Shown here: positions 4,470-29,851 of the stretch, one piece after another | Layout: each line of letters opens with the position of its first letter | How positions within the stretch are numbered: position 1 is the first letter of the stretch | Virus record (IMG/VR): IMGVR_UViG_3300030606_000034 | Location: 1-32,388 of that record | Reading direction: 5' to 3' (one strand) | DNA length: 32,388 nucleotides | Source: a virus | Lineage: Duplodnaviria; Caudoviricetes | Notes under the pieces: generated by a model | The model's database searches: none | What the model was told of the DNA's origin: nothing | The model's input: only the letters and a program-made list of their open reading frames with translations | Program-made: the position numbers and the translations under genes

Positions 4470-5100
4470 CGTCGTCTCCCACTTCGCGTCGTTTCTGCTT
4501 CTCCTGCCGAGCCTGGCGCAACTCGTCGGCAATATCCGTGATGCTGGTGTTCTCCACCACATCCGTCCAGAGCTTGTGCTTTTTGCCAAGTAGCTCCAGC
4601 GCCGCCAGCTTCGGCGCGAGCTTGAACTTGATAGACTTCACCGCTTGCGCGTTGTCGCCTCGACCCTCGTAATACGTGTCGATCGTCACCTCTTGCAGCG
4701 CCGCCAACTGCTCGCGCGTCAGGCCCGACAGATCGGTGACCGCGCTTCCGTCCTCCTGAATGACGATGAAGTCTGTCATGTTCGAGTAGGCAAGCTTTGC
4801 CACCTCCTCGATGATCGTGTCCTCGTTGACGATGAGGCGCTTGCGGATCAGCGCGCGGCATTCCTCGATGTAGTCGCGCATCCATGGCTTATGCAGAAGC
4901 CGCGCGGCGTTGAACGATCCGTGCTGCGAGTTAGAGTTAAAGGCCAAGCGCCAGGCCCGCGAGCCGTTGCCGGTGCGCAGGTATTCGGCGGCGAACGTCA
5001 CCTCCTGCGCTGTCCAGTCGTGCGACAGCCACAGCGGCGGCTCAGGCTCAGGCGGTGCCTCGCCGAACGTGTACTCTTGGATTGCGTCGTCACTCGCCAC
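4399..5100 (-). CDS. terS: Terminase small subunit
   Basis: F..EYL..GN...A...A....AARLL..P HTH, IIEEVAKLAYS and KLAALELLGK motifs (Terminase_2 type); upstream of TerL. Confidence 0.88.
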   Translation of the reverse strand: MASDDAIQEYTFGEAPPEPEPPLWLSHDWTAQEVTFAAEYLRTGNGSRAWRLAFNSNSQHGSFNAARLLHKPWMRDYIEECRALIRKRLIVNEDTIIEEVAKLAYSNMTDFIVIQEDGSAVTDLSGLTREQLAALQEVTIDTYYEGRGDNAQAVKSIKFKLAPKLAALELLGKKHKLWTDVVENTSITDIADELRQARQEKQKRREVGDDDGSTDERSGQDRAIAQGDDAGED

Positions 5101-5101
5101 G

Positions 5102-5200
5102 CTACAGCCTGCCCGTAAGCTCGCGCCAGAAGATGACGACGAACGCGACGACTGCGATGCTGCATCCTATCCCAACTACGGCGAAGAAGTTCCAGATCAT
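5102..5200 (-). CDS. Small single-TM membrane protein (32 aa)
   Basis: MIWNFFAVVGIGCSIAVVAFVVIFWRELTGRL, read manually; ATGA overlap with the upstream gene. Confidence 0.55.
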   Translation of the reverse strand: MIWNFFAVVGIGCSIAVVAFVVIFWRELTGRL

Positions 5201-5376
5201 TTCTCCAACTCCCTCAACAGCGCGTCGGCCAGGAGGACAGCCGCGCGCGCATCTTCGGCAAAGCCTTCCTCGTGCACCAGGCCACCGCCCCGGCCGGCGA
5301 GGAGGCCGGCGAGGAGTGTCGTCGCCACGGCTTCGCGCTTGGTGAGGCGATCCCCTGTCGACGGTTTCTCGAACAT
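5197..5376 (-). CDS. Conserved small phage protein
   Basis: LTKRE..A...LAGLLA...AV..ADALL.ELEK pattern widespread in phages; TGATG coupling. Confidence 0.7.
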   Translation of the reverse strand: MFEKPSTGDRLTKREAVATTLLAGLLAGRGGGLVHEEGFAEDARAAVLLADALLRELEK

Positions 5377-5669
5377 CACGCCACCATGAGCATGACGCCG
5401 GCCGTCGTGCCGACGCAGATCGTGATAAGCCACAGCATGCGAGCGACCTTGATCAGTTGCGCGGCACTCACGGCAGCGGTTGCCGCGTTAACCGGATCGG
5501 CCACGACATAGGCCGAAGTGGCTAGACACTGCGTGAGGTAAGCGAGGCCAGCGGTTGCGATGATCATGAGCAGGGCAAGGTCGCGACGCCACACAAGCGC
5601 GGCTATGGCGACGAGCGCGATGTAGAGCAGGCCGAAGTAGATCGTTGCGCGGAAGCTCTCGACGGTCAT
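5376..5669 (-). CDS. Membrane protein (about 3 TM)
   Basis: Hydrophobic ORF MTVESFRATIYFGLLYIALVAIAALVW..., with GGAGG SD and ATGA overlap. Confidence 0.7.
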   Translation of the reverse strand: MTVESFRATIYFGLLYIALVAIAALVWRRDLALLMIIATAGLAYLTQCLATSAYVVADPVNAATAAVSAAQLIKVARMLWLITICVGTTAGVMLMVA

Positions 5670-5935
5670 GTGATCCTCCCGCGCGGCAGCACGTAATGCG
5701 CGACGGCCTGCCACCTGTCGGCGATCTCATCAAGATCGTCTACGTACCGCTCAAGCTCGCGCTGCTCGTCTAAAGCCGCCATGGCAGGCGATCGGCCGTA
5801 CAGCGGATACCCGCCCTCCTTCATCAGCCCGTCCAGCGGCGTCGGCGGCTCCTCGTCCTTGCCGCACGCGGCCAGCCCGACCAGCGGAGCCAGGCCGAGC
5901 AGCGAGAGGATCGAACGTCGAGTGATATTTTTCAT
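5666..5935 (-). CDS. Putative Tat-exported lipoprotein
   Basis: MKNITRRSILSLLGLAPLVGLAAC: twin-arginine motif, h-region and lipobox LAA-C; AAGGA SD. Confidence 0.72.
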   Translation of the reverse strand: MKNITRRSILSLLGLAPLVGLAACGKDEEPPTPLDGLMKEGGYPLYGRSPAMAALDEQRELERYVDDLDEIADRWQAVAHYVLPRGRIT

Positions 5936-6357
5936 GGCAGTTCCTTTCACCGTTTGAGATCAGAGCCGGCGCGGCAGTCTGGGAGGACTTAACGCCGCGC
6001 CGGCATTTGCCACATGACGCCGTGGCGCGGCAGACAGAGTGGACGTCAGGCTGCAACCAGAACAGATACCGGCAAAAGGTGCGGGTGGCAAGGGTGCGGC
6101 TTAACTGTACCGACCAGACGGTATACCTTACGCTGTACGATTAACAGGTTTCCAGTTAAGCATTTGATTTCATTGAACAATTCCAGCTGGGCAAATTTGG
6201 ACCATTTAGCGGTGAGGTAATCGTTTTCATTACCGTGACGTGATGTCAACGAAAATGGGCTGTTTTGGCGTCGTTTTTAGAATATCATGTCGTTTCTAAT
6301 CCACAAAACTAAGTACCTTAAACTGTAGAGAATATCTTAAATAGATATATAATAGGG

Positions 6358-6386
6358 TTGAATGTTTATCCATTTAAGAATATATT
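6358..6386 (+). promoter_or_regulatory. Putative sigma70-like promoter for the rightward early operon
   Basis: TTGAAT-17 nt-TATATT in an AT-rich intergenic region upstream of the 6445 ORF. Confidence 0.5.
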
Positions 6387-6444
6387 ATAGAGATATGTTG
6401 CGTGTTTTCTCGTGAAACACACCGTGAAACATAAGGATGTAGCT

Positions 6445-6969
6445 ATGAATGACGAACGCAGCCCTGATGACGTGCAAGTCGGCGACGTGGTGCGAGGCCT
6501 AAGCCAGTCGACGCAGACGTTCGTGAACATCGTCGTTCGAGAACGTAAGTATGTCCAGTTCGATAGTGACCGGCACCCTACATTTGTAGGCGTGCGTGGC
6601 TTTCAGGTCAACGACGACGGCACGATCAAAAGCCGCCACTGGCATTACATCGGCAAAGGCCTGCCTGGCCGCAGCGACGGCAGCGGCGGCGGGATGCCGG
6701 ATACCTATCACGAAGACCCACTAACCCGCGAACGATCGTACGGCGGCTGGGTCTATCGGCCAGACATCGTGGCGGTGAAGTTCGAGCGCAACGACAAATG
6801 GGCTGGACCCATCAAGGAACTAGGCGTTGGCGATACGCTGGACATTGATTGTAGTTTCGGGACGATCGCCATCATCCGCAGCGTGGCGTCACAGCAGGCC
6901 GGTAAGTGGAACCGGCGATACAAGGTCGAGAAGACCCTGAGCGGCTGCGCCGTAACGAGGAAGGCGTGA
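6445..6969 (+). CDS. Hypothetical protein
   Basis: TAAGGA SD before the ATG at 6445; C-terminal ELGVGD...VTR small-domain pattern seen in phage proteins. Confidence 0.7.
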   Translation: MNDERSPDDVQVGDVVRGLSQSTQTFVNIVVRERKYVQFDSDRHPTFVGVRGFQVNDDGTIKSRHWHYIGKGLPGRSDGSGGGMPDTYHEDPLTRERSYGGWVYRPDIVAVKFERNDKWAGPIKELGVGDTLDIDCSFGTIAIIRSVASQQAGKWNRRYKVEKTLSGCAVTRKA

Positions 6970-7134: not shown

Positions 7135-7187
7135 GATATTTTTGGACCATGGCTTGACGCCGTACTGCCAGAAAAGGAGACACCCGC

Positions 7188-7463
7188 ATGAACGCCACCT
7201 TCACCCCGTCGAACGTCCATTATCTCCCGCCGCTGCACAGCGCCGACGCGCGCCTCGACGACGCTTGGCGCATTGCCCGCGCCGACGTGGCCGAGGATAT
7301 GTTCTGGATCAACCAGTACGAGCGCTATCTGATGCACGGCGCGATGACGCCCAGCTACCGCCGCTACGTCGAGACGGCCGTCGCCGGCCGCTGCCGGTCA
7401 TACCGCGCCGGGCTGCGGCGCGTCGCCGAGATCGAGGAACAGATCGCGCAGAGGAGTGCTTGA
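7188..7463 (+). CDS. Hypothetical protein
   Basis: AAGGAG SD; phage-typical codon usage. Confidence 0.75.
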   Translation: MNATFTPSNVHYLPPLHSADARLDDAWRIARADVAEDMFWINQYERYLMHGAMTPSYRRYVETAVAGRCRSYRAGLRRVAEIEEQIAQRSA

Positions 7464-7465
7464 AC

Positions 7466-7618
7466 ATGAAAATGCGCTGTTACACCTACTTTTGGAATGC
7501 GGATAGGGACTGTGAAACCATACCCGCGAACGCCACGCATATCATGGTGCTCTACGAATGCCCGACATCGAGCATTGCATCGCAGCCGTCCAGATCATGG
7601 CGTATGTTTGCCATCTGA
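7466..7618 (+). CDS. Hypothetical protein (50 aa)
   Basis: GAGGAG SD upstream of MKMRCYTYFW; ends inside the tandem repeat. Confidence 0.45.
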   Translation: MKMRCYTYFWNADRDCETIPANATHIMVLYECPTSSIASQPSRSWRMFAI

Positions 7619-7654
7619 CAGCTTCATGGCGTATGTTTGCCATCTGACAGCTTC
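7595..7654. repeat. Perfect 29-bp tandem duplication
   Basis: TCATGGCGTATGTTTGCCATCTGACAGCT at 7595-7623 and 7624-7652. Confidence 0.95.
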
Positions 7655-7721
7655 GGTTTCCGGCGTCCGCGCCGGTTTCCCAATCTGCCAAGCGCCACGG
7701 CGCACAACACAGGAGAGAAGC

Positions 7722-8144: not shown

Positions 8145-8214
8145 GGAAGCGCCGGCCGACATCGACGACGATCCGAAGTTCTAGCCCACAACCCCACTGC
8201 CAGGAGCCACCCGC

Positions 8215-8319
8215 ATGACCCTGTTCATTTGCAGCATCATCCTTATCGTGATCGCCGTGCTTGGCGTCATCGACGCCGCGTTGCCCGATGATGATTTCTG
8301 GAGCCAGTTCGATGAGTAG
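8215..8319 (+). CDS. Small single-TM protein (34 aa)
   Basis: MTLFICSIILIVIAVLGVIDAALPDDDFWSQFDE, read manually; AGGAG SD. Confidence 0.6.
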   Translation: MTLFICSIILIVIAVLGVIDAALPDDDFWSQFDE

Positions 8320-10579: not shown

Positions 10580-10923
10580 CCACCATGCACCGCCTGTGCG
10601 AGCACGTCGCCGCCCTGTACGACAACCCGTCGCCAAGCCATGCCGCCGCGTGTGCGGACGCCGAGGCTCACGGCCGGCCGGCATTCTGGCCGGCGACCAA
10701 GTGGGACGAAACGACCGTCGAGCGCGTCGCCTGGTTTGCCACCTATAGCGGCGAACTGCATCAGGCACTCGACCGCTTTTCCGACAAGCCGCGCAAGGAG
10801 ATCATCGACAGCCTTGTGCCGCTCAATCACAAAGCCGTGCTCCAATTGCGCATGGCCTACATGTCGATAGGCGAATATCCGCCAATCCCAAAGCTTTGGG
10901 CCAGACAGGAGAAACGGGCATGA
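10576..10923 (+). CDS. Hypothetical protein
   Basis: ATGA coupled on both sides. Confidence 0.7.
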   Translation: MTTMHRLCEHVAALYDNPSPSHAAACADAEAHGRPAFWPATKWDETTVERVAWFATYSGELHQALDRFSDKPRKEIIDSLVPLNHKAVLQLRMAYMSIGEYPPIPKLWARQEKRA

Positions 10924-12077
10924 CCGCTTTTGTAATCGTAGAAGGCCGCTCTCTTGCGGCAGCAATGAAGAAAATCAACCTCGTCGTCGAGAAGCGAACG
11001 ACGATCCCGATCTTGACCACCGTGCGGCTGCTATCCAGTGGCGTCGGTCTGGTACTGCGCGGTACTGATCTCGACATGGAGATCACGACAGATGTCGACC
11101 TGATCGACGGCGACGGCGACACGGACGTATGCCTGCCGGCGCACTTGCTGGAGAAGATCGCCCGCCAGGCTGGACCCGCGCTAGTGAGGATCGAGGCCGG
11201 CGAGTATCGCGCGAAGATCGACGTTGCCGACGGTGACGCGACCTACGAGGTGCAAGGCTATCCGTCCAGCGATTATCCAGAACTGTCGTCCGGCGCATGG
11301 ACGCCGATCGAGAGCTTCACCAACGGCCGGCTTGCCTCGATCCTCGATCGCGTGTCGACCTGCATATCGACCGAGGAAACGCGCTATTACCTCAACGGCG
11401 TGAACTGGTCGATCGACACGTTCGGCCGCTGCATGACGGCGACGGACGGGCATCGCCTGGCAAGCGCCAGGTACGACACCGACGGCGATGACAAACCCAT
11501 GTCTGTCATAATCCCCTATGGAGCCGTCCGAGTGCTGCGCAAGCTCGCCAAGGGTAAGGACGTGGGCGTCAATCGCAGCACCGACGAGAGGCACCACCTT
11601 GAGTTCTGGATCGGCTCAACCCACCTTGTCACCAAGACCATCGACGGCACATTTCCGGACTGGCGTCGCGTCGTGCCGAAGGAGACGCCGCACGCTATCG
11701 AGTTCGACGCGGACCTGCTTCGCACCGCACTGGAGCGCGTGACCATGATGGCGAGCGAGAATGGCCGGGCCGTCCGCATCTATCGCGGCGAGGACGGCAC
11801 TGCACACCTGTCCATCAAGAACGCCGACAGCGGCGAGGGCCACGCCAAGGCGTTTGCGACTTGGCCGGACGTTCCGGCAGACCCGAATAACCCCGACTTC
11901 AGGGGCACTATCGCCGGCTTCTCCTCGTTTGGCTTCAACGCCGCATACCTGAAAGCCGCGCTTGGCAACAATCACGGCCGCTTCATCCTTCGGTTCGCTG
12001 ACAGCGGATCGCCGTTCATTGTCGACGATGGCGACGAGGAAATGACCCGCGTCCTTATGCCTATGCGCGTCCTATGA
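10920..12077 (+). CDS. dnaN: DNA polymerase III beta sliding clamp homologue
   Basis: TIPIL, GTDLD, STEETRYYLNGV, ATDGHRLA, IDGTFPDWRRVVP, FNAAYL and VLMPMRV motifs. Confidence 0.95.
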   Translation: MTAFVIVEGRSLAAAMKKINLVVEKRTTIPILTTVRLLSSGVGLVLRGTDLDMEITTDVDLIDGDGDTDVCLPAHLLEKIARQAGPALVRIEAGEYRAKIDVADGDATYEVQGYPSSDYPELSSGAWTPIESFTNGRLASILDRVSTCISTEETRYYLNGVNWSIDTFGRCMTATDGHRLASARYDTDGDDKPMSVIIPYGAVRVLRKLAKGKDVGVNRSTDERHHLEFWIGSTHLVTKTIDGTFPDWRRVVPKETPHAIEFDADLLRTALERVTMMASENGRAVRIYRGEDGTAHLSIKNADSGEGHAKAFATWPDVPADPNNPDFRGTIAGFSSFGFNAAYLKAALGNNHGRFILRFADSGSPFIVDDGDEEMTRVLMPMRVL

Positions 12078-12559: not shown

Positions 12560-12607
12560 TCGCACAACACCCGATGCCAACGCCGACTGCCAGCGCGCGG
12601 AACCCGC

Positions 12608-15214
12608 ATGACCGACATTGATTTCGACAGGATCAGGAAAGACTACCCGTTGCCGGACGTGGCAACGGCGTCTGGCCTGAAGCTGACAAAGAACGGCAAT
12701 GAGTACATAGCCTCATGCCCGTTCCACAGCGAGAAGACCGAGAGCTTCACCGTCTACAAGGACAAGTCCGGCGTCTGGAAAATGCACTGCTTCGGATGCG
12801 GCGCGCATGACGACGTGATCGGCTTCTACAAGGAACGCTACGGCTGCAAAGACAGCGGCGAGGCGGCGAGGGAGTTGACTGGTGGAGAAGCCAGGCGCGA
12901 TCCCGTCGCACCGAGCGAGGCAGTGCAGTCCAGCGATCCCTATAGCGGCTACGATATCGGACGCCCGCCTGCCGACACGCCGCCGATCATTGGCGGCAAG
13001 CGAACACCGCCGATCCTCAATCCAAAGCGCGTCGACGCCAGCACCGGCAAGCCCAAGGTGGTCACGTACACGCCGACGATGGCGTTCCCGTACACGACCA
13101 AGACCGGCGAGCTTCTAGGCTACGTGCTGCGCGTCGAGTTCGACGGCAAGAAGATCACACCCGGAGTGTGGTGGACGAAGAACAAGGAAACGCAGTTCGA
13201 AGGCTGGAGCCATGGCAGCTATCCCGCGCCGCGCCCGCTATACGGACTGAAGGAGATACACGAAAATCCAGAACACCAAGTCCTCCTCGTCGAAGGCGAG
13301 AAGTGCAAGGACGCCGCCGCGCGCCTCATGGCCGGCAAGAAGGTGGTCGCTGCTACGTGGATGGGAGGCGGCAAGGCGCTGTCGAAAGTCTACTGGAAAT
13401 CCCTCGCCGGCCGATCCGTGGTCATCTGGCCAGACAACGACGAGGAGGGATGGAAGACTGTTCTAGGCTACGCCGGGCCTGATATGTCCTGGCACAAGGG
13501 CCTCGTCGAATACTGCTACGCGGCCGGTGCGAAGAACGTGAAGATCGTTCACATTACGCCGGCCAGCCGCGAGCCGGGCTGGGACATAGCCGACGCCGAG
13601 AAAGAGGGCCTTGGCCAGAAAGGCGTTGAGTTTATAATTCGTGATCGCATCCAGCCATGGAGCAATGAGCGACACGCAGAATGGAAAGCCGAGGCGATCG
13701 CCAAGGCAGGACCGCAGGGAGCGATAAAGGATGACGACGATCCGGGACCAGTGGAAGACGTTTCACAGAGCGCGCCGGCTGATGAAAGGCCACGGAAAAA
13801 GGCAGGCGGAAGCACTAAGAGAAAACCCGGATATTCCGGAAATGGTACGAAACCGCCTGATCGATCAGATAATATTCCCGCCAATGGTCTGGCCTCAGCC
13901 GACGCTGGCGAAAGCGATGGGCTGGACGACGACGATCTTCCCGCTCAAGTCGGCCGAGGCTTTGACATCGACGATGAAAGCTGGCGAAACCACCTGATCA
14001 TGAAGGCCGACGGCAACGGCCTGAAAGGCAACAGCCTCCAGAACTTCGCCCTCCTGCTCCAGTACGAGCAACGTTTCGCGGGCATCTTCGCGTGGAACGA
14101 TTTCGCCAAGGAGGTCTATCTACAGCGCCGGCCGCCGTGGGACGTTGGCGGCTCTTGGAAAGTCCGCAAGATCACAGAGCCAGACATCACGTCGGCCGCT
14201 TGCTGGCTGGAGTATTGCGGCATGTCACCGAAGACGAACGACATTGGCAAGGTTGTGCAGCGCGTCGCCCAGCACAACAGTTATAACCCGGTCACTTCAC
14301 GCCTGCTCAAGCTGAAGTGGGACGGCGTGCCGCGCCTGTCCGGCAATGGCAATGGCGATGACGCCGAGATCGTCAAGCCGTGGCTTACAAACTGCCTTGG
14401 CGCGGTGCCGTCGACGGAGAACATAGCGTTCGGCCGCAAGTGGATGATCGGAGCCGTCGCCCGCGCCATGCAGCCAGGATGCAAGGTCGACACCATGCTC
14501 GTCCTTGAAGGACCGCAGGGATTGAAGAAGTCTTCAGCGCTGCGCATTCTGTCCGACGCGGTTGTGCCTGGCGTGTTCACCGACGAAATTTCAGATCCAA
14601 ATTCCAAGGACGCCGGCCTGCAAATGCAAGGCGCGTTCATCATCGAGATCGCCGAGCTTGACGCATTCCGCCGCGCCGAAATCACGCAGATCAAGGCGTG
14701 GCTGTCACGCCAGGTCGACCGCTTCCGTCGCCCGTACGGAAAGATCGTCGAGGACTTCCCGCGCGGCTGCGTGTTCGCCGGCACCGTCAACCCGATCGGC
14801 ATCGGATACTTGAAAGACCCGTCAGGAGGCCGGCGCTTCTGGCCCGTCGAATGCGGCAAGATCGACCTAGACCGATTGGCGAAGGACGCGCCGCAGCTAT
14901 GGGCGGAAGCGGTCGCGGCGTATCAGGACGGCGAGGAGTGGTGGTTGAGCGACGACGAACAGGTTTACGCCACGATCGCGCAGGCCGCGCGCTATGAGGA
15001 AGACCCCTATAACACCATGATCGACGAGTACATTCACGGCCGCGCCACCGTCACCCTGCTCGACATCATGCAGCACGCGCTCGACATTCCGAAAGAACGC
15101 CGGAGCGCGATCGTCAACAAGCGCGTAGCCGCGCATTTGCATTCACGTGGATGGCAGCGAGTGAGTGAGGGAAGCGGCCGAGTATTTTACGCCGCGCCGG
15201 ACAGGATCATTTGA
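12608..15214 (+). CDS. Primase-helicase: CHC2 Zn finger, TOPRIM and VirE/VapE ATPase domains
   Basis: CPFHSEKT..HCFGC; VEGEK and PDND; LEGPQGLKKS, IEIAELD, RRPYG and GGRRFWP. Confidence 0.93.
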   Translation: MTDIDFDRIRKDYPLPDVATASGLKLTKNGNEYIASCPFHSEKTESFTVYKDKSGVWKMHCFGCGAHDDVIGFYKERYGCKDSGEAARELTGGEARRDPVAPSEAVQSSDPYSGYDIGRPPADTPPIIGGKRTPPILNPKRVDASTGKPKVVTYTPTMAFPYTTKTGELLGYVLRVEFDGKKITPGVWWTKNKETQFEGWSHGSYPAPRPLYGLKEIHENPEHQVLLVEGEKCKDAAARLMAGKKVVAATWMGGGKALSKVYWKSLAGRSVVIWPDNDEEGWKTVLGYAGPDMSWHKGLVEYCYAAGAKNVKIVHITPASREPGWDIADAEKEGLGQKGVEFIIRDRIQPWSNERHAEWKAEAIAKAGPQGAIKDDDDPGPVEDVSQSAPADERPRKKAGGSTKRKPGYSGNGTKPPDRSDNIPANGLASADAGESDGLDDDDLPAQVGRGFDIDDESWRNHLIMKADGNGLKGNSLQNFALLLQYEQRFAGIFAWNDFAKEVYLQRRPPWDVGGSWKVRKITEPDITSAACWLEYCGMSPKTNDIGKVVQRVAQHNSYNPVTSRLLKLKWDGVPRLSGNGNGDDAEIVKPWLTNCLGAVPSTENIAFGRKWMIGAVARAMQPGCKVDTMLVLEGPQGLKKSSALRILSDAVVPGVFTDEISDPNSKDAGLQMQGAFIIEIAELDAFRRAEITQIKAWLSRQVDRFRRPYGKIVEDFPRGCVFAGTVNPIGIGYLKDPSGGRRFWPVECGKIDLDRLAKDAPQLWAEAVAAYQDGEEWWLSDDEQVYATIAQAARYEEDPYNTMIDEYIHGRATVTLLDIMQHALDIPKERRSAIVNKRVAAHLHSRGWQRVSEGSGRVFYAAPDRII

Positions 15215-15238
15215 CGATGAATTGCCTTGTGATATAAG
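15211..15238 (+). promoter_or_regulatory. Putative sigma70 promoter with extended -10 driving the small RNA
   Basis: TTGACG (15211-15216), 16-nt spacer, then TATAAG (15233-15238) preceded by TGn. Confidence 0.65.
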
Positions 15239-15241
15239 GGC

Positions 15242-15321
15242 GCTGCGATCCTGGCAGGTCGCGGTTGCCTTTCACCGGGCAAGCCCGGCACGTTTCATGC
15301 GGCGTGCCGGGCTTTTTATTT
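15242..15321 (+). ncRNA. Candidate three-hairpin antisense small RNA
   Basis: Three consecutive stem-loops (loops CTGGCA, TTCACC, TTTCATGCGG) between a promoter and a U-tract; loops are complementary to motifs at many start codons. Confidence 0.7.
15281..15321 (+). terminator. Intrinsic terminator
   Basis: 12-bp stem AAGCCCGGCACG/CGTGCCGGGCTT followed by TTTATTT, between convergent genes. Confidence 0.9.
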
Positions 15322-15660
15322 GGGCGCGCCAGGTCCGCCCGCGATAATCGACAGCGCATCCTCGACCGTGCGGGCAATTCCGGAGCGCCCGTTACGCATG
15401 ATCACCCACTTGTGCCAGTCAGCTTGCCCCTTGCGGCGCGCGTCAGAGCCGACCTTGATCTCGATGGACACAAACACCCCGGCAGAGGTCAAACCGATCA
15501 GGTCGCCTCCCCCGCCACCGTGCGGCCCCACTCCGTAGGCAACGCGATAGGTCTTTCCCTTTCGCTTGTAGACGGCCAACCCGCTATTATTGCGAACGAG
15601 CAAGCATCCGACATCGGACGCGGCCAGGCATATCGCCTCAGTCAGTTCGGCGGTGTTCAT
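15316..15660 (-). CDS. VRR-NUC (PD-(D/E)XK) nuclease
   Basis: RNNSG...DLIG...FVSIEIK...Q..W...G...ARTVEDA pattern; downstream of the SF2 helicase. Confidence 0.85.
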   Translation of the reverse strand: MNTAELTEAICLAASDVGCLLVRNNSGLAVYKRKGKTYRVAYGVGPHGGGGGDLIGLTSAGVFVSIEIKVGSDARRKGQADWHKWVIMRNGRSGIARTVEDALSIIAGGPGAPK

Positions 15661-17721: not shown

Positions 17722-17842
17722 CTGTCTGTTCCTTCACCGGCTTGGTCACTGTGATAATCGCGCCGCACTGGCAGCGGCGAGTATGCGGGAACGCCGTCGG
17801 CTTGAACACCGTGCCGCAGGCGCATTTGTAGACGGGTTTCAT
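17597..17842 (-). CDS. Small Zn-ribbon protein
   Basis: MKPVYKCACG...RCQCG; ATGA coupled; long 3' overlap with the next gene. Confidence 0.55.
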   Translation of the reverse strand: MKPVYKCACGTVFKPTAFPHTRRCQCGAIITVTKPVKEQTDGKLQDRDHTNIERSPVIRVGDRPQPASRAKHTALAPARRR

Positions 17843-18108
17843 ATCCCGTTGTCTCGCTTCCACACCGTTGAAAGCGACACGCCGATCTTGGCCGCGATCG
17901 CCTCATAGGTATGGCCAGCCTCGCGCATTCTCTTGATGCGAGGAATGTTGACATGACTTGTCAGCTTCGGAACATAAAGCACCTCGACCGTCGTGAAGCG
18001 ATGCCCGCAGGAGCAGATGCGACGACGGCGTATCTTGTTGCAGCCGCGCCTCGTCTCGATCGTTTCGGACGAGGTACGATGACAGGCAGGGCATTCGATA
18101 CCGGACAT
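17839..18108 (-). CDS. NrdR-like Zn ribbon fused to an HTH (putative regulator)
   Basis: CPAC...ETR...IRRRRICSCGHRFTTVE followed by GHTYEAIAAKIGVSLSTVWK. Confidence 0.8.
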   Translation of the reverse strand: MSGIECPACHRTSSETIETRRGCNKIRRRRICSCGHRFTTVEVLYVPKLTSHVNIPRIKRMREAGHTYEAIAAKIGVSLSTVWKRDNGI

Positions 18109-18416
18109 CACAGCACCCTCCCGTCGTCGACGGACTGGCCGCATGTCGGGCAGACCGCAGGATCGAGGCAGGCGGACACCGCATCCATGAACGCCTTGGC
18201 TTCCTCGTCCGGCAGGCGAGCCGCATGTTCCATGGCCGCGCCGACGATCGCCCGGTTGTGTCGTGTCGGAACGTGGCCGCCGTTGCCGACGTGGCCGCCC
18301 TCCCTCCAGTCATATGGCTTGTCCCAGCGCGTGACCATCGAGCGGTCAGTGCCGGCCGCTTCCGCCAGCTTGCCTTTGCCGCCGAACAGTTCGGCGAGTG
18401 TTTCGACCTGGCTCAT
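18108..18416 (-). CDS. Cro-like HTH regulator with C-terminal CxxC
   Basis: LFGGKGKLAEAAGTDRSMVTRW...GG.VP; CPTCG; near the divergent promoter. Confidence 0.75.
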   Translation of the reverse strand: MSQVETLAELFGGKGKLAEAAGTDRSMVTRWDKPYDWREGGHVGNGGHVPTRHNRAIVGAAMEHAARLPDEEAKAFMDAVSACLDPAVCPTCGQSVDDGRVL

Positions 18417-18685
18417 GAGTTCTGTTCCTTGTATTTGGCGATGTTCGCAACGATTTCGCCGATGCCTCCACCGCCCGGTCCAAAGGCTTTCTCGATCGCC
18501 TCCCTGCCGATTACATGGCGCGCTGCCTCCAATTCTTCCGGGGTCTTGAAAGTGGCGATCGGCTTAGGACCATCCGGGAACTGCCTCTTGTATTCTGCGT
18601 TCGCTTCGGCTTCGCAGTAGAGGCAACCGCGCCCTTGGCAGAAGCGGCAATCGCGGTAACGCTTTCCATCAAATCGCATCGTCAT
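18413..18685 (-). CDS. Hypothetical protein with CxxCxGxGCxxC motif
   Basis: GAAGGA SD; first gene of the leftward operon. The 5' extension in the ORF track is antisense to HNH. Confidence 0.72.
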   Translation of the reverse strand: MTMRFDGKRYRDCRFCQGRGCLYCEAEANAEYKRQFPDGPKPIATFKTPEELEAARHVIGREAIEKAFGPGGGGIGEIVANIAKYKEQNS

Positions 18686-18703
18686 GCTTTTTTCCTTCAC
18701 CGG

Positions 18704-18756
18704 TTGACAGAATTTATTTCTGGTCGTATTCCTACCCGACATTGACGCGATGTCAA
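18704..18756. promoter_or_regulatory. Divergent sigma70-like promoters with a palindromic operator
   Basis: Rightward TTGACA-17-TATTCC (18704-18732); leftward TTGACA at 18756-18751; TTGAC-N5-GTCAA at 18742-18756. Confidence 0.65.
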
Positions 18757-18775
18757 GACCTGCCAGGAGACGCAA

Positions 18776-19336
18776 ATGCCAGCCGCACGCATCACCAGAG
18801 AGCAAGCCATGGAGCTTTTCGTCTATGACGACGATGCCGGCAAACTCTACTGGCGAGAGCGACCGGCTAGCCATTTTACGCATGAGGCATACCAGCGCGC
18901 ATGGAATACCAAGTACGCCGGACGACAAGCCGGGTCGATATCGCTGAACGGCTATCGTCGCGTCAACATCGGCGGCTGCTTTCAGTACACGCACCGCATC
19001 ATATGGCTTCTGGAGACTGGCGAATGGCCGGACGAGATTGATCATATCAATGGACGCCGGACAGACAACCGTTTCGCAAACATGCGGGAAGTCGACCGCA
19101 AGACGAACGGCAAGAACGCCAGTCGTAGCGTTAGCAACAGCAGCGGAGTGACCGGCGTGTCGTTCGACCGTTCGTATCGCAGATGGGTCGCGTACATCAC
19201 AGTCGACGGGGCCAAGGTTCACGTCGGACAATCTACCAATAAAGCAGCAGCCATCGCCATGCGAAAGGCGGCAGAGCGCGAATACGGTTATCATCACAAC
19301 CACGGAAAGGAACCTGCCAGTGCCTATAAAAATTGA
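18776..19336 (+). CDS. HNH endonuclease with AP2-like domain
   Basis: HRIIW...IDHINGRRTDNRFANMR, SSGVTGVSF, W.AYI and AAIA.RKAAE motifs. Confidence 0.92.
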   Translation: MPAARITREQAMELFVYDDDAGKLYWRERPASHFTHEAYQRAWNTKYAGRQAGSISLNGYRRVNIGGCFQYTHRIIWLLETGEWPDEIDHINGRRTDNRFANMREVDRKTNGKNASRSVSNSSGVTGVSFDRSYRRWVAYITVDGAKVHVGQSTNKAAAIAMRKAAEREYGYHHNHGKEPASAYKN

Positions 19337-21387: not shown

Positions 21388-21651
21388 ATGACAGAGCATA
21401 AAGGACTACCGGTCGCCGGCTATCAGGAGACGCAATCGCAGGAAAGCGTCAACCTCGTCAACGAGGCGAAGGCGCTGGAGGAGCGCACCTTGCGCTTTGC
21501 CGACAAGCTCAAGGGTATGGGAACGTCGGCAGATCAGCGCCGCGTCGCCATCGGCGTCACCAACATCGAGCTTGGTTTCACGCAGCTTTGCAAGGCGATC
21601 TTCGCGCCGACCGGATCACGGATCGCGCTTCCGGAGGACAACAAGGAATAG
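21388..21651 (+). CDS. acb2: Acb2-like anti-CBASS cyclic-oligonucleotide sponge
   Basis: 87 aa; AGY...LVN..K and R..AI..T.I..G...L.KAI..P match the Acb2 pattern from memory; AGGAG SD. Confidence 0.8.
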   Translation: MTEHKGLPVAGYQETQSQESVNLVNEAKALEERTLRFADKLKGMGTSADQRRVAIGVTNIELGFTQLCKAIFAPTGSRIALPEDNKE

Positions 21652-21807: not shown

Positions 21808-22236
21808 ATGACCATCACCGCTACACCTGCCGCCGCGCCAATGACCACGGTCCACGGTTTCGCCGTGCAGATACTCGCATTCATCCCGATCCCGAAAGAC
21901 GATCTCAAGCGGCAGATCGAAGTCAGCCAGGCGCTTATCGATCTTGGCGAGGGAACCAAGACCATCGCCGATCTCGTGCCCTTCATGAAAGGCGTCGAGT
22001 TCCGGCAACAGCACGTCGGCAAGCGCGTCACCGTCGAGGAGGCGAATAGCTGGAAGGCTCAGGCGCAACTGCCGCTGGACGAACAGACGGCCGAGGAGAA
22101 GGACGCCGAGGCCGAGGAGGCGAGCCAGCCGGAGCCGAAGGCCGCCAAGGGCAAGGGCAAAGCCAAGCCACCGGCCGACGCCGATGAGGACTTCGACGAC
22201 ATCGATCCGGCCGACATGGACGGCGGAGACGATTGA
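21808..22236 (+). CDS. Hypothetical protein with acidic C-terminus
   Basis: AGGAG SD; phage-like codon usage. Confidence 0.78.
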   Translation: MTITATPAAAPMTTVHGFAVQILAFIPIPKDDLKRQIEVSQALIDLGEGTKTIADLVPFMKGVEFRQQHVGKRVTVEEANSWKAQAQLPLDEQTAEEKDAEAEEASQPEPKAAKGKGKAKPPADADEDFDDIDPADMDGGDD

Positions 22237-22261
22237 CGCCGGGTCAAACTGATGGCATAAA
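22233..22261 (+). promoter_or_regulatory. Putative promoter overlapping a TTGAC-N5-GTCAA palindrome
   Basis: TTGACG-17-CATAAA with TGn; palindrome at 22233-22247. Confidence 0.5.
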
Positions 22262-22316: not shown

Positions 22317-22333
22317 AACCATAGGAGCATCCG

Positions 22334-23263
22334 GTGAAAGAACTGTTCAAACCATGCAAGTTCAACTCTCGCGTCCTTGAGCGCATCAGGCTTTGCAACA
22401 CGATCTTGGAAAACTATGCGGCGCGCGGCTACAAGGTCACGTTGCGATCCCTTTATTACCAACTTGTCGTGCGCAACGACATCGAGAACAGCCAGCAGTC
22501 TTACAAACGCCTCGTCGACACGCTGACCAAAGCCAGGCTTGCCGGCCTCGTCGACTGGAAAGCCCTCGAAGACCTTGAGCGCCCGCTGCAAGGTGGATAC
22601 GGCGGATACCGTGATCCGCAAAACTTCTTCGACAGCATCGAAGGCGGATACTTCAAGGACCAATGGGAAGGCCAGCCCGTCTATGTCGAGGTGTGGGTTG
22701 AGAAGAACGCGCAGCTAGGCGTGATCTCCGTTCCATGCAATCGCTTCCAGGTCCGCTACATGTCCTGCAAGGGCTACCTGTCGCAGACGGCGCACTATGA
22801 GGCCGGAAAGCGGTTTCAGGGAAAGGCGCGCGACGGCAAGGAGTGCATCATCATCCATCTAGGCGACCACGATCCGAGCGGCATCGACATGACGCGCGAT
22901 CACGTCGACAAGATCGACATGTTTGCGCAGCTTCACGACGTCGAGGTTAAGAGGATCGCCTTGCACATGGAGCAGATCGAGGAGTTGAACTTGCCGCCCA
23001 ACCCGGCCAAGGAAAGCGACAGCCGATATGCAGGATACCGCGATCGGTTCGGCGATCAGTCTTGGGAACTCGACGCGCTTGAGCCGCAATACACGGACGC
23101 GCTTGTGTCCAGGCACATCGAAGAACTGATCGACCAGGACATCCTTGCTGAACTAAGGAACCGCGAGGCCGAGGAAAGCGCAGAGGTGAACGAAACCGCA
23201 AGAGCGCTCGCCGAGAACTATGATGCGATCCGCAACCACATGCGCGACCAGGGCATGATCTAA
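22334..23263 (+). CDS. Topo VI-A/Spo11-like TOPRIM protein (Mini-A-like)
   Basis: TLRSLYYQL (winged-helix tyrosine motif), VWVEK, LGDHDPSG and WELDAL motifs. Confidence 0.75.
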   Translation: MKELFKPCKFNSRVLERIRLCNTILENYAARGYKVTLRSLYYQLVVRNDIENSQQSYKRLVDTLTKARLAGLVDWKALEDLERPLQGGYGGYRDPQNFFDSIEGGYFKDQWEGQPVYVEVWVEKNAQLGVISVPCNRFQVRYMSCKGYLSQTAHYEAGKRFQGKARDGKECIIIHLGDHDPSGIDMTRDHVDKIDMFAQLHDVEVKRIALHMEQIEELNLPPNPAKESDSRYAGYRDRFGDQSWELDALEPQYTDALVSRHIEELIDQDILAELRNREAEESAEVNETARALAENYDAIRNHMRDQGMI

Positions 23264-23335: not shown

Positions 23336-23399
23336 TGGCCTTGATACGAGCAAGCGTCTAGACACTTGCGTCAAACGCCTACTGCCAGGAGATACCTAT

Positions 23400-24095
23400 A
23401 TGTTACCCGCACAATCAGGCATCTATTGCATCGAACACGCTGACAGCGGCCGTGTGTACGTTGGCTCCGCACTCAATATGAGAGGCCGTGTCGAGCTACA
23501 TATCCGGCTACTGTCGGCCGGCAACCACCACTCGCCCATCCTTCAACGTTCGTGGGTCAAATACGGTAGCGACGCATTCGATATCTATGTGCTCGAAATC
23601 GTGCCGGATCACAATCGACTGTCTACGGCAGAGCAAATGTGGATCGACCGCCTACAAGCGGTAGGAAAGAACGGCTTCAATATCATGCCGACGGCAAGCC
23701 GCCACGGTAGCGGCAAAGGCACCCCCGCCTCTCCCAAGTACCGCCAACGCTGCTGCAACGAGTGTGGCCAGCCCTACCAGCCCGGCCGCGCGGATCAATT
23801 CTTCTGTGTCCGCAAGTGCCGCATGGATTTCGAGAACCGCATGATGACACGCGGTCGCGAACTCTATTCCCTTTTCATGGTCATGCGCTACGAGCGCGGC
23901 GTCGCCAGGATGCGCGGCGTATGGGCGATAGCCTGCCGCCTGGCGCAAGGATGGCGCGAGGAGGACGAGCGCGAGCGCGACGGCCGCCAGTCATGGATAC
24001 CGGCAAAGCGCGCGCTGGCGAAGTTCCCCGTAACCATGACGGTCGCCGACGTGTACGTGAAGCAAGAGAAGTTCGGCCGGGCTGGCGTGCGCTGA
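23400..24095 (+). CDS. GIY-YIG endonuclease domain fused to a C-terminal Cys-rich domain
   Basis: SGIYCI...VYVGSA...R...H, EQ.WID and GFNI; then CNECG...FC...C; AGGAG SD before the ATG at 23400. Confidence 0.82.
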   Translation: MLPAQSGIYCIEHADSGRVYVGSALNMRGRVELHIRLLSAGNHHSPILQRSWVKYGSDAFDIYVLEIVPDHNRLSTAEQMWIDRLQAVGKNGFNIMPTASRHGSGKGTPASPKYRQRCCNECGQPYQPGRADQFFCVRKCRMDFENRMMTRGRELYSLFMVMRYERGVARMRGVWAIACRLAQGWREEDERERDGRQSWIPAKRALAKFPVTMTVADVYVKQEKFGRAGVR

Positions 24096-25571
24096 TCACA
24101 CGCCGTGCAGAGGCCGAGGGTCAGGCACTTCGAACAGCGCGATCCGCTCGACCACCGCAACGCCAACGCCAACAGCCTGCCCGTCGATGTCGATTTGGCA
24201 CGCAGGAGCTTGCGTAGTCACGCCCACTGGCACTTGCCACGGCGGACCGAGGATATCCAACACGACTTCCTCCGAAGCCTCGATCCGAGCGTCAGCAGCG
24301 GGAGAGGCCATGCCACCGGATGCAAAAAGCGCGGTCGCAACGTTGCGCCATCCTGTCCAGGCACCAAGTCGCACGCGAATGTAGCTCCTCACCCAACTGC
24401 CCGGCGTCACCGGGATAGTTCCTGCCGCCCTCGAAATGATGAACACTTCCCGCGCAGAACCGGCCGCTTGTATCGTGAACGTCAACACCTGCTTGTCGGC
24501 ACCGTTCTTCGACTTGACGCAGGTGCAGGTTCCCGCTCCCTGGAACGCAGCGATCCAGCCCGCAGCAGTCGGCCCGCTGCTCCTTGTCGCGCCGCCGCCG
24601 CCAGTTCCCGCCATTTGCGAAAGCAGTTCAAGGCTTGGCGATGTCGGGATGTAGCTAAACGCTTCTGGAAATAACGGCTGGAGTACCGGAAGTAACGACG
24701 CGCCGCCAGCCTGTGCTCCAGTTCGCGACGGATGCGTGCCGTCGAGGGTGTACCCGGCTATAGGTCTGCCCGCCCCGTCATCGTACGCCAGGTTGACATC
24801 CCAAAGATGAACGTTCGGCGCAGCAGGAGCATAGGCACGGATCAGCGTGTTGATGTCTTGAAGGATGATCAGGCGCGGATCAGCATCCGGAAGTGCCGAC
24901 ACCCCTTCCGGCCGAACCGTCGAGAGGATTACCGGGATGCCGCGCGACGTGCACTTATCGCAAGCGGCTTTAAGATTGGCCATCGTCGTGGCGGCTGGAA
25001 CGCTCCCGTTCACGTCGTTCACACCGACTGAGATAATGACCACGGCCGGCGAGTAAGCCAGCAGGGCATCGACGCGCGCCAGCGCTTGCGCCGAGGTGTT
25101 GTCGCCGATGCCGGCGTTCATGCCCGTAAAGTCGGGCACCGCGTCACCATCGTACCAAGTGTCGTATTCGAAATGCGGCCAGAGCGCGTTCGCCCAAGCT
25201 ATCTCGCCGAGGCCCATCGTCCAGCCGAACGCGTTGGTCGCGGACCAGACATGATTGGCCTGCATGATGCTGTCGCCGAGGAAACCAAGGCGTGACCGTG
25301 CCAGTCTCCCCTTACCGATCAGGGCACCATCGTCCCACAGCCGCTTACCGCCAACGTCGGAATACCATCGGCCGTCACCGGCATCGAAGACGCCAGGTAT
25401 CGCCGCCGCCAGCGCTTGAGCGCCGCGCAGGCGTTTTCCGCCTACGTCGAAGTACCAGCCGCCAACGCCATCCGACTGGATACCGTAGCCGGCAGCGGCG
25501 AGAGCTTCCGCGTGATAATAGCGCTCGCCATCAACGTCGAGAACGAGCCGGCGTCCATCAAACTCGAACAT
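24096..25571 (-). CDS. SGNH/GDSL hydrolase-domain protein (possibly a virion esterase)
   Basis: LGDSI, NAGIGD, GVND and DGTHP blocks; N-terminal repeats; GAGGG SD before the ATG at 25571. Confidence 0.85.
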   Translation of the reverse strand: MFEFDGRRLVLDVDGERYYHAEALAAAGYGIQSDGVGGWYFDVGGKRLRGAQALAAAIPGVFDAGDGRWYSDVGGKRLWDDGALIGKGRLARSRLGFLGDSIMQANHVWSATNAFGWTMGLGEIAWANALWPHFEYDTWYDGDAVPDFTGMNAGIGDNTSAQALARVDALLAYSPAVVIISVGVNDVNGSVPAATTMANLKAACDKCTSRGIPVILSTVRPEGVSALPDADPRLIILQDINTLIRAYAPAAPNVHLWDVNLAYDDGAGRPIAGYTLDGTHPSRTGAQAGGASLLPVLQPLFPEAFSYIPTSPSLELLSQMAGTGGGGATRSSGPTAAGWIAAFQGAGTCTCVKSKNGADKQVLTFTIQAAGSAREVFIISRAAGTIPVTPGSWVRSYIRVRLGAWTGWRNVATALFASGGMASPAADARIEASEEVVLDILGPPWQVPVGVTTQAPACQIDIDGQAVGVGVAVVERIALFEVPDPRPLHGV

Positions 25572-27185: not shown

Positions 27186-27707
27186 TCAGAGCTTTACCAC
27201 TACTTCCGCGCGAAAGCGATCTCCGCATTCCCGCGCCGTGTCGAACGAGGGATCGAAAGGCAGCTTGGCAATGTCCCACTTGCCGCGCTGCGGGATGCCG
27301 AGATTTGCCCCGACTTCGGCGTGCGACAAAACCGTCTTTGGCGTGACCTTGATGCCGTAGCGCCGGCACAGATCGGCGACGACTTCGGAGGCTTTGTCCC
27401 ATTGCGCCTTGGTCAGCGGGAACCTGCCGGCGTTGAATGGCCGTTCGACCGCGCCTGCCATGCAGCACAGCGACACGCCAATCGATCCGGTGTTGCACAT
27501 GCGCGTGTGCGCGGCATAGCCGGCCTTCGCCTTCGGCAAGGAGTTGAGCGCGATTGACGGCTTGCCCCTGATCAGCTTGCCATCGTTCTCGATCAGAATG
27601 TGGTAGTGCTTGCGATCGAAGTCGGACGCCTTGTGAGCGCCGGCCGTCCAGTGAAGGATGACGCGGGCGATCCGCGCGTCGGGCATCCAGTCTGATGGAA
27701 TTCTCAT
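27186..27707 (-). CDS. Endolysin, N-acetylmuramoyl-L-alanine amidase (Amidase_2)
   Basis: ILHWTAG, YHILI, AHT..N..SIGV, SHAEV and KWD Zn-amidase motifs. Confidence 0.9.
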   Translation of the reverse strand: MRIPSDWMPDARIARVILHWTAGAHKASDFDRKHYHILIENDGKLIRGKPSIALNSLPKAKAGYAAHTRMCNTGSIGVSLCCMAGAVERPFNAGRFPLTKAQWDKASEVVADLCRRYGIKVTPKTVLSHAEVGANLGIPQRGKWDIAKLPFDPSFDTARECGDRFRAEVVVKL

Positions 27708-27713
27708 TTGTTT

Positions 27714-27986
27714 CTATCCTTCCAGCATCTTCGCGGCGCGGGCCACAACCACAGGCGCCCACACGGTCGGCAAAAGCGAGCGGATCAGGGCCGCATCTTC
27801 CGGTGTGATCTCATGCTCGCCGCCATCTGCCACAGTCAGTGCGAGGTTGCCGCGCTTCATGGCTTGATCGAGCGACAGCGGTTCCTTGCCCGGTGCATTC
27901 AACGCATTGAGCGCCACGGCCCCAAGGTGGAATTCAAGTTCCTTGCCGTCCGGACCGGTGATCTTCTGAGAGAAGTCTATTTTCAT
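27714..27986 (-). CDS. Small protein downstream of the tail fibre (possible chaperone)
   Basis: MKIDFSQKI..DG...; AGGA SD; position immediately after the fibre gene. Confidence 0.7.
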   Translation of the reverse strand: MKIDFSQKITGPDGKELEFHLGAVALNALNAPGKEPLSLDQAMKRGNLALTVADGGEHEITPEDAALIRSLLPTVWAPVVVARAAKMLEG

Positions 27987-27996
27987 TTTTTGCTTC

Positions 27997-29802: not shown

Positions 29803-29851
29803 AAGGCACTGCCCCTCTTGGTTCTACAGTATCGCAAGCCCTGGCAGCGGC

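Follow-up and report, generated by a model that had tools for sequence, protein, structure and literature searches.

A putative phage antisense RNA whose loops co-vary with the starts of the phage's own early genes

What is the role of a short run of hairpins lying between two convergent genes in a phage that has no CI gene at its early switch? The window studied here, the whole 32,388-base virus record IMGVR_UViG_3300030606_000034 (about 70% complete), carries such a locus between a primase-helicase gene and an endonuclease gene: a predicted RNA of about 76 nt with three hairpins. The loops of this RNA are complementary to the start regions of early genes of the same phage, and comparison with related phages provides strong evidence, in which we have considerable confidence, for antisense control by the RNA at multiple early genes of its own phage. 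The RNA would probably repress the translation of those genes in trans, doing the job of a CI protein that the clade apparently lacks. To judge from its conservation, it is a real, hitherto undescribed family of phage small RNAs (sRNAs). The elements of the locus are as follows.

15211-15238, plus strand: predicted sigma70-type promoter of the RNA, recognized by sequence, with similar elements at the equivalent place in relatives
15243-15318, plus strand: predicted small RNA of about 76 nt (5' end approximate), recognized by its fold and family conservation
15243-15264, plus strand: hairpin 1, loop 15251-15256, putative seed for six targets
15266-15281, plus strand: hairpin 2, loop 15271-15276, putative seed for four strong targets
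15282-15321, plus strand: hairpin 3 and U-tract, loop 15295-15300, an intrinsic terminator-like stem and putative anti-start-codon seed
12608-15214, plus strand: zinc-finger/VapE primase-helicase, upstream neighbour of the RNA gene and itself a putative target
15316-15660, minus strand: endonuclease (PHROG 93), presumably VRR-NUC-like, last gene of the leftward SF2 helicase operon, with its stop codon inside the U-tract of the RNA

The predicted promoter consists of TTGACG (15211-15216), which overlaps the primase stop codon, a 16-nt spacer, TGA (15230-15232) and TATAAG (15233-15238). Relatives have a TTGAC-like hexamer and a -10-like element at the equivalent position. A sigma70 consensus scanner passed over this promoter because it requires T at position 6 of the -10 element. 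The fold of the RNA has a z-score of -3.8 to -5.5, and 0/200 shuffles were equally stable; the minus strand folds as well (z -4.3) and, in the window, has no U-run after the hairpin. Coordinate check and fold statistics thus bear out the promoter, three hairpins and U-tract that an earlier, sequence-only reading of this DNA had placed at 15211-15321. That reading had also proposed an Rfam search, which returned no match to the RNA and, across the window, no match to a C4- or CI-type model up to an E of 5. Three weak matches arose in the window, one of which (M23, E 3.8) overlaps the RNA on the minus strand and is taken as chance. A blastn search of the RNA against cultured phages gave zero matches.

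Where would the loops pair? We called gene starts with a simple caller of our own, which combines a coding score with a generic Shine-Dalgarno (SD) score and is blind to the loops, and counted as a match any complement of at least 7 nt to a loop region within the start window (-30 to +10). The main sites, several of them at open reading frames (ORFs) without a name, are these.

12587-12593 and 12604-12611, plus strand: loop 1 and loop 3 sites at the primase start, either side of a weak ribosome-binding site
7165-7171 and 7184-7192, plus strand: loop 1 and loop 3 sites at the start of ORF 7188-7463
8197-8205 and 8211-8218, plus strand: loop 1 and loop 3 sites at the start of the 34-codon ORF 8215-8319
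18757-18768, plus strand: 12-nt loop 1 site preceding the HNH gene at 18776, within the rightward early operon's leader
19312-19320, plus strand: loop 1 site between the SD and the GTG start of a RecE-like exonuclease
22331-22340, plus strand: loop 2 site that covers the GTG start codon of the Spo11/TopoVI-A-like gene 22334-23263
23382-23390, plus strand: loop 1 site before the GIY-YIG gene at 23400
18696-18703, minus strand: loop 2 site, leader of the leftward early operon with ORF 18685, the Cro-like gene and the helicase
17733-17740, minus strand: loop 2 site preceding ORF 17721, which lies upstream of the helicase
5943-5952, minus strand: 10-nt loop 2 site before ORF 5935

Every loop complement that the earlier reading had listed at dispersed starts is present in the sequence, and the strong sites lie 2.4 to 9.3 kb from the RNA gene, on both strands. 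The positional enrichment that it had set as a test is strong: 12 of the 44 start windows of the phage carry a match, against 6.2% of coding windows (p 1e-5), and shuffled loops match 2.6 start windows on average, with 0/1000 shuffles reaching 12. Start windows of other phages match the same loops at a rate of 10.8% (Fisher p 0.003 against 12/44). The caveat that GGTGA is part of the SD consensus is answered by discarding SD-like 7-mers, after which the count is still 12/44. Ten of the 12 matched starts are sites already listed by that reading; the other two (7466 and 16023) are single 7-mers and may be chance. With the RNA gene itself excluded, 6/11 occurrences of CTGCCAG lie within -30 to +10 of a called start, where 0.26 would be expected; for CGGTGAA the figures are 4/13 against 0.31, and for CCGCATGA 3/6 against 0.14. 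The last of these stands at 3/39 ATG starts, compared with 2/214 internal in-frame ATGs.

The placement of the sites is also selective. Across 617 starts from 17 phages, complements antisense to the mRNA number 122 and those in the sense orientation 19, and they peak at -20 to -1 of the start. Non-virion genes are matched at 109/460 starts and virion or lysis genes at 13/157 (p 1e-5); starts behind an intergenic gap are matched more often (76/259) than others (46/358; p 7e-7). None of the 12 matched starts of the window belongs to a virion gene; sites are carried by both leaders of the divergent early switch (18686-18775), and by the primase, RecE and Spo11-like genes. The proposal of trans control over replication, recombination and packaging genes therefore holds in part: early genes, the primase and RecE among them, are matched, but we rejected packaging genes as targets, as matches are depleted in virion genes and those near the terminase and tail-fibre starts sit 35-39 nt upstream. 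The tail-fibre site put forward earlier (29840-29847) is present, but at 38 nt upstream of the start it lies beyond the enriched zone. Ten of the 12 target regions in the window fold no better than -6 kcal/mol (range -1.6 to -7.4), and at the ten main sites pairing with a loop is predicted to yield -13 to -21 kcal/mol; the likely effect of pairing is therefore occlusion of the ribosome rather than unmasking of its site. RNAcofold, a program that does not handle kissing loops, gave an uninformative structure for the RNA paired with the primase start.

Is the RNA confined to this phage? Searches with the primase and helicase yielded 24 distinct loci in which the primase faces the nuclease/helicase operon (related records and loci are labelled with G- and L-numbers). 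In 21 of these, the gap between primase and nuclease holds a promoter-like site, two or three hairpins and a terminator-like stem; the gaps of L283, L495 and G018 hold no such unit. The primases of the 21 RNA-bearing loci form one side of a branch (SH-aLRT 96) against nine RNA-less rows, in a quick tree from which three short rows were dropped and in which several rows are partial. All 21 RNAs fold with a z of -2.3 or lower, and the plus strand folds better than the minus in 14 of the 17 members tested (G-U pairs). The stems and loops themselves diverge; a plain alignment of eight of the RNAs has only 47% column identity, which is too poor for a covariance model or a stem covariation score. 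No Rfam family reaches its gathering score over the RNA in 16 related loci. A scan of species genomes produced 23 distant loci, 0 in the convergent arrangement, and no close relative of the family was found in 185,579 species genomes or among plasmids. A scan of viral contigs for the loop 1-loop 2 pattern picked up about 9,600 stretches, too many to be specific, and the 120 loci that it gave were left unused.

Do the loops follow their targets as relatives diverge? To judge from these sequences they do, and this co-variation is the key result of the comparison. In G001, whose primase is 66-68% identical to that of the window, loop 1 and its sites are kept, and loop 2 reads UUUCAUCGG rather than the UUUCACCGG of the window. 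The orthologous Spo11-like gene starts with CCG-ATG-AAAG in G001 and with CCG-GTG-AAAG in the window, and the loop changes from CAC to CAU in keeping with it. Loop 3 follows the start context of the primase, which is CCGCATGA in the window, TCGGATG in G001, TGATGACC in G002, AGGATGAAA in G014 and CCAATGAGC in L394, each complementary to loop 3 of the same phage. Loop 1 and its primase site change jointly, to CTGCCACA in G002 and to CTACCACA in G015 and G019. The loops of G003, G011 and G021 are entirely different and again match their own primase starts. Co-varying sites occur at the RecE orthologues of G001, G006, G015, L395 and L415 (6/11 RNA-bearing rows matched), and G001, G003 and G016 have sites for their own RNA before a GIY-YIG-related gene. 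The order of the loop 1 and loop 3 sites, which the earlier reading had held against itself as not colinear with the RNA, is kept in the subclade of the window and is colinear in the subclades of G003, G011 and G017; it is thus no evidence against pairing.

These changes are matched by the statistics. When primase starts, located by homology, were scored against the RNAs of 16 phages, the self score was 214, a value reached by 0/500,000 permutations, and the phage's own primase start was the best match in 11 of the 16 rows. Genome-wide, 16 RNAs match 110 of 566 own starts, against 26 expected (0/200,000 label permutations as high); once SD-like 7-mers are removed, 87 matches stand against 23 expected. 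Among genomes obtained after the test was fixed, the counts are 13/52 in G019 (p 2e-5), 17/61 in G024 (p 3e-8), 5/54 in G021 (p 0.03) and 6/54 in G025 (p 0.35). The changes between close relatives are, on the sequences compared, the evidence least affected by kinship. Loop/target covariation had been set as a test by the sequence-only reading; in the relatives the loops change with their targets rather than drifting away from them. Since loops and starts change together, the RNA is likely a master off-switch that stands in place of a repressor protein.

How might such a switch work? Host RNA polymerase would transcribe the RNA from its own promoter, and each loop would nucleate a kissing duplex of 7-12 bp on an unstructured start region. 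Loop 1 would pair over the SD or a little way upstream, loop 2 on either the SD or the start codon, and loop 3 across the AUG; the primase start would be clamped by two loops. Pairing would block loading of the 30S subunit. As the targets are often the first genes behind a gap or a promoter, both divergent early operons and the replication primase could be throttled together. A second, transcriptional layer would likely come from a Cro-like protein acting at palindromes of the form TTGAC-N5-GTCAA. The elements of this layer are the following.

18686-18775, no strand assigned: divergent early switch with back-to-back promoter-like sites (-35 at 18704 on the plus and at 18756 on the minus strand) and no CI gene
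18108-18416, minus strand: Cro/YdaS-like small helix-turn-helix (HTH) gene, a weak assignment (atlas 0.82-0.85; PHROG 409, E 0.003), in a cluster of 14 family members
18742-18756, 22233-22247 and 6235-6249: palindrome TTGAC-N5-GTCAA, overlapping -35 elements at the switch and at some early promoters

In 7 of the 14 members, just 92-101 nt separate the Cro-like gene from the next divergent gene. The palindrome also occurs in G001, G003, G006, G011, G013, G015-G017 and L240; it overlaps the switch promoters in most members, and partial look-alikes stand 34 nt before the starts at 7188 and 23400. It likely serves the Cro-like protein as operator, and would form a layer of control in the DNA, apart from the sites for the RNA.

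Does the RNA stand in for a CI protein? None of the 11 complete RNA-bearing records has a match to the tyrosine integrase (PF00589) or HTH_3 (PF01381) models. The RNA-less G018 encodes an integrase and, at the switch position, a 216-aa, CI-sized HTH protein. G026, G027 and G028 have an integrase and an HTH domain in a frame of 234-308 aa, and the 1.5 kb behind the primase shows no RNA in any of them. In G022 and G023, both integrase and RNA are missing, and a divergent pair of small HTH genes is present. A lambda-type switch, that is, CI divergent from a Cro-like gene together with an integrase, was found in 0/11 complete RNA-bearing records, with residual doubt left by small ORFs at the switch; among the 59 ORFs of the window there is no antirepressor family. 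The guess, made from the window alone, that the RNA acts in place of CI gains support from the lack of integrase and HTH_3 matches in all 11 complete records and from the CI-sized protein at the switch of RNA-less G018. Substitution for CI is a plausible candidate role.

If it is a repressor, in what state of the phage would it serve? ParA and a 78-aa ORF are inserted next to the RNA gene in G016 (10828-11732) and G017 (27234-28810); in G017 a resolvase joins them, and inserted genes there break the adjacency of nuclease and RNA. The circular G021 also encodes ParA (18218-18754); the form of its record id is, we presume, that of genome projects rather than metagenomes, and the record could equally be a virus isolate. 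The occurrence of ParA in these three records points to plasmid-like maintenance in part of the RNA-bearing clade. We give an even chance to the idea that the RNA provides repression and immunity to a carrier or plasmid-state genome that does not integrate. With the nuclease stop inside the U-tract and no minus-strand U-run after the hairpin, transcription running on from the helicase operon could, as a speculation, neutralise the RNA and so create a double-negative switch. More tentatively still, and with the chances somewhat against it, the single RNA of about 80 nt may be both master repressor and immunity factor of a non-integrated prophage, with loops that define immunity groups and with read-through of the helicase operon as the opposing arm of an all-RNA lysis switch. 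If true, three independently evolving loops would silence the starts of both early operons and of the primase, and a CI protein would have been replaced clade-wide.

A number of observations weigh against repression by this RNA in place of CI. In the own-genome test by a loop-only rule (G017 left out), 7 of the 21 members are not significant: G006 (6/44), G012 (2/50), G013 (1/17), G014 (5/37), L393 (0/3), L394 (2/9) and G025 (6/54). The primase starts of L240 and L415 do not match their own RNA, and for the RNAs of G016 and G017 the better match is the primase start of a relative, not that of their own phage. The seeds are short (only 7-12 nt), the gene starts come from our simple caller, the RNA ends were set semi-manually, the permutations ignore relatedness, and the RNA of G002 has no clean U-tract. 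As to CI, the Cro-like genes themselves mostly escape the HTH_3 model, and the S24 model, with 0/13, also missed the CI-like protein of G018, so that negatives from these models are weak for small repressors. In six members a small ORF of 64-116 aa, with no family assigned, lies facing the Cro-like gene; an HTH_3 gene is also present in G006, at a distance from the switch. ParA was not found in 14 of the 17 RNA-bearing viral records, including the window with its 70% completeness, and no family member turned up as plasmid or prophage in a named bacterium.

The lack of ParA in those records, together with the absence of a ParB match in 13 records, of integrase from all 11 complete genomes and of close relatives in the 185,579 species genomes or among plasmids, suits a reading in which the RNA and its pairing are the same and the phages are strictly lytic. 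The RNA would then be a delayed negative-feedback timer that builds up once the cell is infected and shuts down early and replication translation before the late phase, which the early character of the targets also fits, and no lysogeny repressor would have been replaced. We regard this as a serious if rather less probable account. It sits poorly with ParA and a small downstream ORF in G016 and G017 (with the resolvase of G017), with ParA in circular G021, and with the retention of a Cro-like divergent switch; further, loops that diverge between close relatives appear to behave as immunity determinants would. We favour the carrier or plasmid-state role over a lytic timer.

The remaining explanations change the action of the RNA or dispense with it. 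Pairing at start regions might activate translation or stabilise the mRNAs, given that several loop 1 sites are just upstream of the SD rather than on it and that the primase has a weak SD. The start codon itself is covered by the sites for loops 2 and 3, and the target regions hold little structure to be opened, which makes activation improbable. Still less credence is due to a functional opposite strand, on which helicase-operon read-through would display copies of the start motifs as a decoy for an RNA-binding translational repressor protein, a logic that resembles CsrB/RegA. The minus strand does fold (z -4.3), and the leftward operon ends in the U-tract without a minus-strand U-run behind the hairpin, but promoter and U-tract are conserved on the plus strand, which folds better in 14/17, and the protein would need a new specificity for up to three motifs in each lineage. 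We attach least weight to the idea that the motifs serve in the DNA as operators or promoter elements, or resemble SD/ATG sequences by chance, with the hairpins a mere terminator between convergent operons. A terminator is indeed expected here, starts are purine-rich, the match rate across phages (about 10%) exceeds the coding background, and a separate DNA palindrome exists. Set against this are the antisense orientation (122 versus 19), the survival of the enrichment when SD-like 7-mers are removed, two extra hairpins behind a promoter, and compensatory changes that include a start codon; the co-variation largely refutes it.

To our knowledge, the phage immunity RNAs known so far act on one neighbouring operon or under a protein repressor. 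The P4 CI RNA, as described in the available parts of PMC4825925, is likewise a small phage RNA that keeps replication genes off via short complementary sites. It is processed from the leader that it controls and pairs with the adjacent seqA and seqC, leading to premature termination (PMC4825925); unlike it, the window RNA has its own predicted promoter and terminator and complements at least 10 dispersed translation starts on both strands. The C4 RNA of P1/P7, according to the available text of PMC8198154, is a short antisense RNA that blocks phage genes and helps the lysis/lysogeny decision of a plasmid prophage. The target of C4 is a single operon (icd, ant1/2), and C4 is subordinate to the repressor protein C1 (PMC8198154), whereas in the window we found no antirepressor operon, no CI and no Rfam C4 match. 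Several traits of C4 and CI RNAs are wanting in the window: flanking sites in the same operon (the strong sites are 2.4 to 9.3 kb off), an icd/antirepressor operon, or termination in the RNA's own leader (the sites lie at translation starts).

AbcR1 of Agrobacterium and related alphaproteobacteria, in the portions of PMC4152367 available, also acts in trans, using separate single-stranded modules on many mRNAs, often at initiation regions. By sequence the window RNA shares its design, with a predicted promoter of its own, stem-loops, an intrinsic terminator and separate modules complementary to many initiation regions; it does not belong to the AbcR/MmgR Rfam family. AbcR1 is chromosomal and directs anti-SD motifs at host transporters (PMC4152367), whereas the loops of the window RNA are for the most part not anti-SD, are specific to the phage and match genes of the phage itself. 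MmgR/SuhB (RF00519) is of similar size, and a few family members have CUCCC-type loops; RF00519 reached its gathering score at 0/17 RNA loci scanned. G016 and G017 carry a true RF00519 match elsewhere. This second sRNA, above the suhB/MmgR gathering score and with its own TTGAC promoter, lies at 17954-18030 of L329 (G016) and 18511-18585 of L330 (G017); it may act on host mRNAs or hint at the origin of the family.

Other phage sRNAs that tune lysis, lysogeny or replication include P22 sar, lambda OOP and aQ, Stx phage 24B_1, VpdS and PreS, which, in the available text of a 2025 review, have a single phage gene as target (ant, cII, Q, d_ant) or affect chiefly host RNAs (PMC12197685). No RNA that represses an entire early regulon through several loops with co-varying sites is described in the available parts of that review, our comparison covering these apart from its table of 38 undescribed phage sRNAs, and nothing equivalent appears in those of PMC13492144. 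The RNA is undescribed in the literature that we searched, most subscription papers and all supplements being outside its scope.

What would follow if the RNA acts as proposed? Phages without integrase or repressor genes are now classed as virulent by default, and for this reason one RNA running an entire early regulon would change how such phages are classed. The compensated loop/target pairs across 21 phages amount to natural specificity controls, and the idea is therefore testable with reporters alone. The family also offers a compact set of orthogonal translational repressors.

What kind of phage carries the RNA? The window encodes portal, terminases, tail and lysis genes, and a rightward early operon with HNH, RecE and RecT. 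Its portal is nearest to those of epsilon15-like podoviruses (37-38% identity). Among cultured phages and plasmids the RNA-bearing family has no near relative, the best protein identities being 33-45%. A phage-encoded DNA polymerase III beta clamp (10920-12077, plus strand) is present in G001 and G015 too; its best matches in the window, to Shinella and Sinorhizobium (34-35%), make an alphaproteobacterial host likely.

Several genes and stretches deserve mention in their own right. The HNH gene (18776-19336, plus strand) and a GIY-YIG fusion (23400-24095, plus strand) each have a loop 1 site, and neither is at these places in G001, as if the inserted nucleases had taken over or acquired a control site. 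The 309-aa protein of PHROG 6247 (22334-23263, plus strand) has atlas neighbours that suggest a Spo11/TopoVI-A Toprim fold, without a B subunit. Its gene occurs in six family members and is a putative RNA target in five; a role for it as a recombinase for integration was rejected, as no support was found. In G002, the helicase match (4608-6086, minus strand) is interrupted by one TGA stop. An AT-rich non-coding stretch (window 6050-6445) separates divergent gene blocks and is a possible origin or early promoter region. An exact 29-nt tandem duplication, noticed by eye, lies in a poorly coding stretch (window 7597-7655). A GDSL lipase/esterase gene (24096-25571, minus strand) stands at the end of the lysis block, and G002 has one too. 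Finally, a gene with an Acb2/Tad1 hairpin domain (21388-21651, plus strand), found in G015 as well, likely encodes an anti-defence sponge.

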